Source of the DNA: Elusimicrobiales bacterium
GTDB taxonomy: Bacteria > Elusimicrobiota > Elusimicrobia > Elusimicrobiales > UBA9959
Reading direction: 5' to 3'
Length of the DNA: 50,519 nucleotides
Assembly (NCBI GenBank): GCA_036171915.1
Contig: JAVHRY010000039.1
Coordinates: forward strand, 1 to 50,519
The translations under genes were made by a program, and so were the position numbers. Under the pieces are notes generated by a model that was not told where the DNA came from, did not search any database, and saw nothing but the letters and a program-made list of their open reading frames with translations. Shown piece after piece: positions 45,809 to 47,157 of this stretch (its first letter is position 1; each line of letters opens with the position of its first letter).

Positions 45809-45895
45809 AAGGGCTCCTTGAACTTGCGCGGGCCGCTATTAGCGCCCGCTTATATATTTAAATTATACTAATTAGGACGAAGGACAGGAAGGTTA

Positions 45896-46357
45896 GGGCT
45901 CGTTAAAGAATAACTGACGCATTTGGGGCCCATATTTGAGCCGGATGCAAGGCGCGACGAACGAGCATACCGGTGGCTGTGGGTGGAGCGAAGCGACACA
46001 ATTCAAGAACAAGTGAGGAGCAAAGCGGCAGCCGGCTCAAAGATGGGCCTCCCCCTTGGGGCTTAGCCGCTTTCGGGCTGCGCCTTCGCGGCATTCCGCT
46101 AAAGCACGTGTAGTACATATTGCTCCATGCCGCTTCGGCTAGGAGCCTGTCCGACATAAGGCTTTCATGACGAAATTGACGATTTTGGAGCCGAGCCGAA
46201 GCGACGCGAAACGAGCACCCTCGACGGAGGTTGTAAGTTGAGCGTCGCGAAGGCGCAGGACAAAAGCGGCAATTGCAGGCGAAATTGCTTATGTCGGACA
46301 GGCTCCTAGCTCCAAAATCAGCTCAGCCAAATGCGTCAGTTATTCTTTAACGAGCCC
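45896..46357. mobile_element. MITE family B (outer element, about 295 bp without the nested insert)
   Basis: Perfect 31-bp terminal inverted repeats GGGCTCGTTAAAGAATAACTGACGCATTTGG (45896-45926 and 46327-46357) flanked by direct TTA (45893-45895, 46358-46360). Confidence 0.88.
46139..46309. mobile_element. MITE family A, copy 2, nested inside MITE B
   Basis: Perfect 22-bp inverted ends CTAGGAGCCTGTCCGACATAAG; 14 substitutions and no indels relative to 27829-27999. Confidence 0.92.
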
Positions 46358-46367
46358 TTAGCGGGAG

Positions 46368-46453
46368 GAAATGCGAAAACCCGCTTTTGGCGGGTTTTCG
46401 CTTCCCCTTGAATCGGGGAGTTCTCAGTTAGTGGCCGTTCTATGCCGGCGACT
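46368..46453 (-). ncRNA. Candidate stand-alone small RNA with three stem-loops
   Basis: Lies between a near-consensus promoter and a 12-bp terminator-like hairpin; AGUCGCCG-GCAUAGAA-CGGCCACU and UCCCC-GAUUCAA-GGGGA stems; no ORF. Confidence 0.55.
46373..46401 (-). terminator. Terminator-like hairpin closing the candidate sRNA
   Basis: gcgaaaacccgc-ttttg-gcgggttttcgc, a perfect 12-bp stem; only a short AUUU tail on the minus strand. Confidence 0.6.
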
Positions 46454-46459
46454 GGATAT

Positions 46460-46488
46460 AATGTAGCAGAAAAGACTTGACTTGTCAA
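46460..46488 (-). promoter_or_regulatory. Sigma70-type promoter TTGACA-N17-TACATT with extended -10 TG
   Basis: Minus strand reads TTGACA agtcaagtcttttctgc TACATT. Confidence 0.75.
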
Positions 46489-46500
46489 GAGCCACCCCGG

Positions 46501-47157
46501 TTACTGCCCCTGGGCGGCCCGGTTCTTCCAGACGCTGTAATGCAGCACTAACATGATATCCAGGTTATCGGCGCTGTTAAGGCTGAAATTGGCGCCCTTC
46601 ATGTTGAAAATATGGTGCCAGCGCAGGTCCAGTCCCGCCCGCGTCCCCCACCAGAAAGGGTAGGTTACCCCGCCGCCAAGGTTAACCCCGGCGCTGGAAC
46701 CGGAATCGGAGGCATAGCGCACGCCGCCGGAAGCGAAAGCGGGCTGCGTCCACTGGTAAACACCCGCCCCGAACACGCCGTAATAAATCTTGTCCCCCTC
46801 AGGGAACGAGGCCCTGACAAAAGGAGTAAAAGAGAATATCTTAAGCCCCAGGTCTTTCATTACACGGTTCTCGTGGCGCAGGGAATAGGACGATTCCAGC
46901 CCATAACTAAGGACCTCGTCCACCCGCTTTAAGGCCGCCAGGCTGAAAGCCGGGGAAGACTTGAACCCGGCATCCTTATCCCCCCAATGTCCGCCGAACG
47001 GCAGCGTCCAACCGCCGCCCCCCGAGATGTAACCGGCGATGTAGCGCGGCGGCTCCGGCAGGTCCTCAAGCCCGGGCAGGCCGTCCGCCGGCGCGGCCGC
47101 GCCGGACCCGGCGCAGGCGCAGAGGCAGAATAGGACCAGGCCCGCGGCCTTTTTCAT
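46501..47157 (-). CDS. Outer membrane beta-barrel protein
   Basis: Signal peptide; alternating beta strands YGVFGAGVY, GVNLGGGVTY, AGLDLRWHHIF. Confidence 0.7.
   Translation of the reverse strand: MKKAAGLVLFCLCACAGSGAAAPADGLPGLEDLPEPPRYIAGYISGGGGWTLPFGGHWGDKDAGFKSSPAFSLAALKRVDEVLSYGLESSYSLRHENRVMKDLGLKIFSFTPFVRASFPEGDKIYYGVFGAGVYQWTQPAFASGGVRYASDSGSSAGVNLGGGVTYPFWWGTRAGLDLRWHHIFNMKGANFSLNSADNLDIMLVLHYSVWKNRAAQGQ

Follow-up and report, generated by a model that had tools for sequence, protein, structure and literature searches.

The DNA analysed here, hereafter the window, is a stretch of 50,519 nt (contig JAVHRY010000039.1, assembly GCA_036171915.1) from the metagenome-assembled genome (MAG) of an Elusimicrobiales bacterium of the phylum Elusimicrobiota; the MAG comprises 2.26 Mb and is 89% complete. 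On the minus strand, the gap between a gene for an outer-membrane protein (OMP) and the ftcD gene holds a compact unit that consists, in this order, of a promoter, two small hairpins (P1 and P2) and a 12-bp terminator hairpin (Table 1). The OMP gene is the open reading frame (ORF) at 46501-47157, which encodes an OMP_b-brl protein and ends in a TAA stop codon at 46503-46501; the -35 box of the unit begins 12 nt past this stop. On the ftcD side lie two nested miniature inverted-repeat transposable elements (MITEs), the outer of which sits between the terminator of the unit and the control region of ftcD and starts 15 nt past the terminator hairpin, much as the initial annotation of this DNA had estimated. 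We consider it very probable that the unit is an independent functional RNA gene.

The sequence elements listed in the initial annotation, namely the minus-strand promoter (TTGACA, a 17-nt spacer and TACATT), the two stem-loops and the perfect 12-bp hairpin, are exact base for base. P1 is formed by AGUCGCCGGCAUAGAACGGCCACU, seven bases past the -10 hexamer. The U-tract after the terminator stem is short (AUUU), for which reason the terminator is unlisted in a consensus scan. The fold of the 93-nt stretch has an energy of -41 kcal/mol as against -20.9 +/- 2.7 kcal/mol for shuffled sequences (z of -7.39), with none of 200 shuffles being as good. The pentamer AGAAC, whose double occurrence had been pointed out earlier, is repeated by coincidence, its first instance falling in the freely varying loop of P1. 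The remark that no ORF follows the promoter stands: the only minus-strand ORFs between 46488 and ftcD are a 50-aa frame with a TTG start that begins within the -35 box and frames of 43-84 aa in the MITEs. As the indels among homologues are not multiples of three, no reading frame is conserved. Judged by its sequence, the RNA is non-coding.

Table 1. Coordinates of the small RNA gene and of the neighbouring elements, numbered from the first base of the window
Feature	Position	Strand	Remarks
-35 box, TTGACA	46488-46483	-	17-nt spacer to -10; promoter matches consensus at 10 of 12 positions
Extended -10 box, TGC-TACATT	46460..46468 (hexamer 46465-46460)	-	TG present
Putative transcript start	A at 46453, 7 nt past -10	-	placed by spacing alone
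RNA body, AGUCGCCGGCAUAGAACGGCCACUAACUGAGAACUCCCCGAUUCAAGGGGAA	downstream of promoter	-	about 85 nt
Hairpin P1, AGU-C-GCCG / CGGC-C-ACU	46430..46453	-	conserved C-C mismatch; variable loop
Unpaired linker, AACUGAGAAC	46420..46429	-	family consensus AAMUGWGAAC; unpaired in single-sequence and consensus folds
Hairpin P2, CUCCCC-GAUUCAA-GGGGAAG	46401..46420	-	C-rich 5' arm, variable 7-nt loop, 3' arm GGGGA(A)G
Intrinsic terminator, GCGAAAACCCGC-CAAAA-GCGGGUUUUCGC	hairpin 46401-46373; feature 46368..46401	-	perfect 12-bp stem; tail AUUUC
Palindrome, CTTGAC-AA-GTCAAG	46476..46489	-	overlaps the -35 hexamer, which is its left half; candidate operator or family-specific promoter signature
Putative ftcD promoter	45862..45890	-	weak -35-like TTCCTG, 17 nt, TATAAT in AT-rich box TAATTAGTATAATTTA
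Outer MITE	45895..46358		464 bp; perfect 32-nt inverted ends at 45895-45926 and 46327-46358
Inner MITE	46138-46310		23-nt ends at 46138-46160 and 46288-46310

The unit is present as a single copy in its own genome and is conserved among relatives. In a DNA search of 60 relatives, 31 of the 36 genomes from the window's genus had a copy with 75-84% identity, and the matches were confined to query positions 12-132, which correspond to the stretch from the -35 box through the terminator tail. In an alignment of 20 genus copies the flanks on either side of the unit are unalignable, and the -35 hexamer TTGACA is invariant in all 20; the promoter is also retained in 21 copies from other genera, and the -10 region of the homologues reads TGCTATAAT or TGCTATACT. 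Twenty copies served to build a covariance model, with which 150 genomes of the order were searched. Among the other genomes of the window's genus (g1), 36 of 39 gave a match, one of them weak (31 bits), and matches also came from further genera of the family, namely g8 (6/6), g10 (3/3), g11 (6/7), g13 (3/4) and g17 (3/3); genus g18 gave one weaker match, and both genomes of the sister family f3 were positive. Two of the g10 genomes bear a second, diverged copy that lies 1.3-2.7 kb from the first and is not in tandem with it. In the small-genome sister family f2 there are only terminator-grade matches, the best of which (38 bits) is a terminator without P2, and a broader covariance model gave no match in 98 genomes from 27 other families of the phylum (f4-f30). 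An exact-pattern scan of one genome each for 185,579 prokaryote species found the core in 36 stretches, of which 32 are labelled as Elusimicrobia MAGs and four just as 'bacterium'. The search for homologues that had been proposed for this locus was productive across the genus, further genera and family f3.

The structure of the RNA is supported by covariation. In an alignment of 50 distinct sequences (22 pairs, 1095 cells), which was fitted to the covariance model and somewhat favours structure, 98.2% of the cells are paired and 12 of the 22 pairs have changed on both sides. These compensatory changes are distributed over all the helices, affecting six of six pairs in P1, three of the four modelled pairs in P2 and three of 12 in the terminator. 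None of 500 shuffles reached the observed values, and sliding the partners by 1-3 columns left 41-51% of the cells paired. The identical three helices emerged from an independent MAFFT/RNAalifold analysis of 20 sequences; all three are thus supported. Beyond structure, the sequence itself is conserved in four places, namely the linker, the stem of P2, the C-C mismatch of P1 and nearly the whole of the terminator. The last of these is near-invariant with its CAAAA loop included, apart from an A-U to U-A swap in nine of the 50 sequences. The loops of P1 and P2 are variable, that of P1 in both length and sequence, and the linker keeps its sequence across genera while the neighbouring P1 varies. 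The unpaired linker is a candidate seed for base pairing or for contact with a protein. Taken together, conservation and covariation of the unit extend over one Elusimicrobiales family and a sister family, and the unit represents a new RNA family of a well-known kind of gene, the small RNA (sRNA) gene.

The genomic neighbourhood raises the alternative that the unit is a cis-acting leader or attenuator, in which the strong promoter also serves ftcD and a ligand or a protein decides whether the hairpin terminates transcription. The gene order in the genus is constant (MR_MLE enzyme, OMP, RNA, ftcD, acyl-CoA dehydrogenase): in 19 of the 20 genus loci the RNA is followed by ftcD on the same strand, the 20th locus being cut by a contig end, and an OMP homologue lies upstream in 16 of 20. 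Among the 21 strong copies outside the genus, ten are directly upstream of ftcD. This persistent adjacency counts for the leader alternative, though the gene order in the genus does not by itself tell an sRNA from a leader, and because the U-run (AUUU) is short, some read-through into ftcD is possible. The overall layout also recalls riboswitch and attenuator leaders, in that a promoter, a structured RNA and a terminator precede a same-strand metabolic gene in most genomes.

In other respects the unit differs from such leaders. The whole window has no match to Rfam 15 at the gathering score, and for 221 nt at the locus the 21 weak matches listed at E-values of up to 10 are only terminator-like noise, which agrees with the earlier observation that the sequence fits none of the riboswitch consensuses considered there (ZTP, THF, c-di-GMP, glnA, preQ1). 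Visual inspection of the 50-sequence alignment, as distinct from an energy-based search of alternative folds, revealed no antiterminator, that is, no upstream segment complementary to the 5' arm of the terminator. Moreover, an AT-rich box holding TAGTATAAT is found 45-60 nt before the start codon of ftcD, always downstream of the sRNA terminator, and is kept in 19 genus loci and in nine loci of five other genera, such that every genus examined has a conserved -10-like box between the terminator and ftcD. We infer that this box is the promoter of ftcD; it is unlisted by a consensus promoter scan. In most relatives the ftcD start is about 100 nt past the terminator, while in the window the 464-bp MITE parts the two.

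The contexts of the remaining strong copies outside the genus are varied: three precede a GT1 glycosyltransferase gene, two an MR_MLE gene (these being second copies), one a gene for an FGE-sulfatase and one an acetate kinase gene, and one lies at a contig end. Three further copies (L059, L070, L073) face a convergent gene and have nothing downstream, a further difference from riboswitch and attenuator leaders. As ftcD has a control region of its own, the contexts vary, and there is neither an Rfam match nor a competing segment, we regard the unit as an RNA gene in its own right and the leader alternative as improbable. Simple read-through, with the RNA as the 5' untranslated region of ftcD, which the initial annotation had named as a possible refutation, is likewise unlikely in view of the conserved -10-like box. 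Its proposal of a stand-alone sRNA gene is borne out: promoter, transcript and terminator form one sharp-edged conserved block, the helices covary, and the block is also found away from ftcD.

A more specific identity proposed in the initial annotation has fared less well. It suggested that the RNA could be one half, the antitoxin, of a toxin-antitoxin-like system with an NYN RNase, either orphaned or acting in trans, and pointed to similar leaders in front of NYN-domain RNase genes in Patescibacteria. However, no match to the NYN family (PF01936) was found in the 89%-complete genome or among the 80 flanking proteins scanned in this and related loci. The core pattern, as seen above, is confined to Elusimicrobia MAGs and entries labelled 'bacterium', with no Patescibacteria among its 36 stretches. 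There is also a single unit per locus, without a tandem array, in a stable housekeeping synteny. We therefore find an antitoxin role hardly credible.

Another identity is suggested by the 5' part of the RNA. CreA of the CreTA modules and CreR are regulatory RNAs that resemble CRISPR RNAs (crRNAs). By analogy, P1 and the linker would correspond to a CRISPR repeat in degenerate form, and the rest of the RNA to a fixed pseudo-spacer through which a Cas complex is directed to a promoter and represses it. The first 34 nt are indeed of repeat size and combine a GC-rich hairpin with a tail of about 10 nt ending in GAAC, followed by fixed sequence, as in CreA and CreR. The window genome also carries a CRISPR array at a contig start (C143:83-1570), with 23 copies of a 32-nt repeat that starts with GTCGCC like the window RNA and ends with GAAAC. 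Against this, the likeness to the resident repeat is weak, being restricted to the six bases GTCGCC at the 5' end, and is not conserved, most homologues reading GGACGCC, and the gene occupies a housekeeping neighbourhood, not a cas locus. Furthermore, Cas1 was found in three of 41 genus genomes, with none found in the window assembly, whereas the RNA is present in 36 of 39, so that it occurs in genomes without detectable Cas1. We rejected the crRNA-like identity for this phyletic mismatch and the unconserved repeat likeness, and give it only a minimal chance of being correct.

Housekeeping RNAs were likewise considered. Neither signal recognition particle (SRP) RNA (RF00169, RF01854) nor 6S RNA matches at the locus, which forms three separate perfect hairpins and not one long hairpin, and both identities were rejected. 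The small and large bacterial SRP RNA models of Rfam gave no match in any of 25 Elusimicrobiales genomes, 99%-complete ones included, and the 6S model gave none in the window genome. An SRP-like candidate site elsewhere (C4) gave no Rfam match and was discarded. The missing SRP matches may reflect a limit of the search filter or a truly divergent SRP RNA. Family f2, from which the RNA described here is missing, is likewise without detectable SRP RNA.

Two well-known types of sRNA offer closer comparisons. RsaE/RoxS (RF01820) are C-rich sRNAs of the Firmicutes, and the present RNA is like them in being a short promoter-to-terminator RNA with hairpins, a C-rich motif suited to G-rich ribosome-binding sites, conservation within a lineage and presumed independence of Hfq. 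It differs from them in that its C-run lies inside a helix and not in loops or linkers, in belonging to a different phylum and in having no target or regulon to compare; RF01820 is not among the 21 weak Rfam matches listed, and the identity was rejected. MicL and DapZ of enterobacteria are 'type I' sRNA genes, which are embedded in a 3' untranslated region and have a promoter of their own. The likeness to these lies in the closeness of the -35 box to the OMP stop codon and in the OMP gene having no terminator of its own, for which reason the OMP mRNA and the sRNA probably share the hairpin. Unlike in the MicL/DapZ type, the upstream gene is inconstant, being AnmK, PAD_porph or a divergent gene in other lineages, and the sRNA promoter lies after the upstream ORF or overlaps only its last codons, instead of being deep inside it.

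How might the RNA act? The best explanation that we can offer, which we hold with about even confidence, is that of a self-contained non-coding RNA gene of about 85 nt acting in trans. A strong sigma-70-type promoter, with its TTGACA box, 17-nt spacer and extended -10 element, would start transcription at about 46453, and the transcript would fold into P1, the 10-nt unpaired linker (AAMUGWGAAC), P2 with its C-rich arm and the very stable terminator, ending near 46369. The RNA would then act as a trans regulator in which the linker and the adjoining C-rich run most likely pair with G-rich sites in mRNAs, such as ribosome-binding sites. Since the window genome gave no match to the Hfq, CsrA or ProQ families, such pairing would be chaperone-free or use some other helper. 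A factor bound to the palindrome over the -35 box probably governs the synthesis of the sRNA; this palindrome is common to 2-10 other promoters per genome, mostly ones that drive secreted or envelope proteins. For base pairing in trans as the mechanism, we would put our confidence slightly below even.

Several points weigh against this reading. The adjacency to ftcD, in 19 of 20 genus loci and 10 of 21 outside, leaves room for a cis link. The start and end of the transcript, and transcription itself, are deduced from sequence features; a look-up of RNA-sequencing runs listed none that contains this DNA. At 89% completeness of the genome, Hfq, ProQ and CsrA are to be described as 'not found' and not as 'absent'. 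The C-rich run lies within helix P2 and not in a loop. A search of 41 genus genomes for the 15-nt complement of the linker and C-run returned essentially the sRNA gene alone, the few other matches being terminators or coding sequence. In the window genome, the one whole genome covered by this search, the duplex energies of the full 56 nt and of the 25-nt seed against 2585 crude start regions, which rest on rough gene calls and include many false starts, were no better than those of shuffled seeds. Nor did the neighbouring genes in 15 genus loci contain a positionally conserved pairing site. The best single match, 11 bp over the ribosome-binding site of ftsZ, was rejected as a target, being missing from the ftsZ leaders of 29 out of 29 relatives; a LolA-like gene on contig C101 has a 10-bp match. 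The near-invariance of the terminator, its loop included, exceeds what termination needs and may point to protein binding.

That last point leads to a serious rival, in which the RNA, instead of pairing with mRNAs, would be bound by a protein at the invariant 3' hairpin, the linker or both and would titrate or scaffold it. The near-constancy of the terminator hairpin and its CAAAA loop across genera, next to a P1 that varies freely, speaks for this rival, as do the conserved C-C mismatch in P1 and the fact that no base-pairing target has emerged. The difficulty is that there is no candidate partner: Hfq, ProQ and CsrA were not found, and the neighbours include no conserved RNA-binding gene. 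Hairpins that share the AAAACCCGC...GCGGGUUUU core are also found with weak scores elsewhere, sister family f2 included, so that a preferred form of terminator may account for part of the conservation. Given the invariant 3' hairpin, protein binding has to be taken seriously, although we think it rather unlikely.

As an observation on the ftsZ leader itself, that of the window genome (C119:24605-24710) is about 100 nt long and has a strong GGGGAG ribosome-binding site, while in most relatives (L153-L181) the ftsZ start is no more than a few bases away from the ftsA stop and the GGGGAG site is missing.

Returning to the trans-acting sRNA, the promoter palindrome allows its possible regulation to be considered. 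The 12-mer TTGACAAGTCAA occurs at 10 sites in the window genome as against about 0.3 expected by our own estimate, and at least eight of the 10 have the same extended -10 box at the same distance. The nine sites besides that of the sRNA are on contigs C66, C84, C96, C100, C102, C106, C115, C124 and C128. Of 29 genomes examined in the family, 27 have 2-10 such sites each; in sister family f2 the motif is present in one of 29 genomes, and the reversed-sequence control gives 0-1. The genes that follow the other sites (loci L182-L201) are orthologous across three genera, and they encode a clostripain-family peptidase, paralogous membrane and glycine-rich proteins, an SLT transglycosylase and TPR proteins. 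Some sites precede long G/U-rich leaders, and one precedes a c-di-GMP-I riboswitch (L189:408-486). The motif is also found in genera without the RNA (g9, g14, g15), so that the promoter class extends beyond the RNA. The palindrome is centred near -29, as would suit either a repressor site or a promoter signature peculiar to the lineage. It is conceivable, though in our view unlikely, that a factor bound to the palindrome controls a regulon particular to this lineage, with the RNA as its riboregulatory arm; the factor would switch on the RNA along with secreted, envelope and c-di-GMP-controlled surface operons, and the RNA would tune the synthesis of envelope or surface proteins post-transcriptionally. 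If so, it would be a case of sRNA action that is chaperone-free or depends on a new chaperone in an uncultivated lineage.

Two further groups of leaders were noticed downstream of these promoters. In one subset (C84:3567, C106:21483, C128:6119; L184, L185, L188, L192, L194) the leader has a conserved start, ..GYAGUCUUGWUCUUUUWA.., which presumably resembles an antitermination box; it is followed by several hundred G/U-rich bases with no convincing ORF and then by unrelated genes (RmuC, BtpA and unknowns). On contigs C96, C100 and C102, about 40-110 nt past the motif, there is a conserved structured leader, ..CUUUGMCCUGAAC...GUGUCAGGRAAAGUUUA.., also seen in L186, L197 and L201, which precedes paralogous genes for a membrane protein of 300-370 aa and a glycine-rich protein and has no Rfam match at the gathering score.

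In terms of its wider meaning, the RNA is of moderate interest for the annotation and RNA biology of an uncultivated phylum, and is unsurprising in kind. RNA-based regulation in the Elusimicrobiota is almost unexplored: full-text searching, within the literature that it reached, turned up no description of an sRNA from this phylum, and Rfam is without a family for the present RNA. The 50-sequence structural alignment and the covariance model could seed such a family, and the promoter signature common to a few surface-protein operons offers a way into how these uncultivated bacteria control transcription. For annotation, the gap between the OMP gene and ftcD is to be seen as containing a gene and not as an empty spacer.

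The surroundings of ftcD show some additional features. The ftcD leaders (window 45809-45890; L010-L028, L060-L076) contain the conserved AT-rich box TAATTAGTATAATTTATATATA followed, immediately ahead of the ribosome-binding site, by a short hairpin that keeps its pairing while changing in sequence from one species to the next; box and hairpin may form a separate regulatory element of ftcD. The nested MITE insertion is genome-specific and not part of the RNA gene. Enlarged spacers at the same spot are also seen in the relatives L013, L016 and L021, and the spot between the terminator and the ftcD box may be a preferred landing site. In the window, the MITE landed beside the RNA gene without disrupting either this gene or the ftcD unit.

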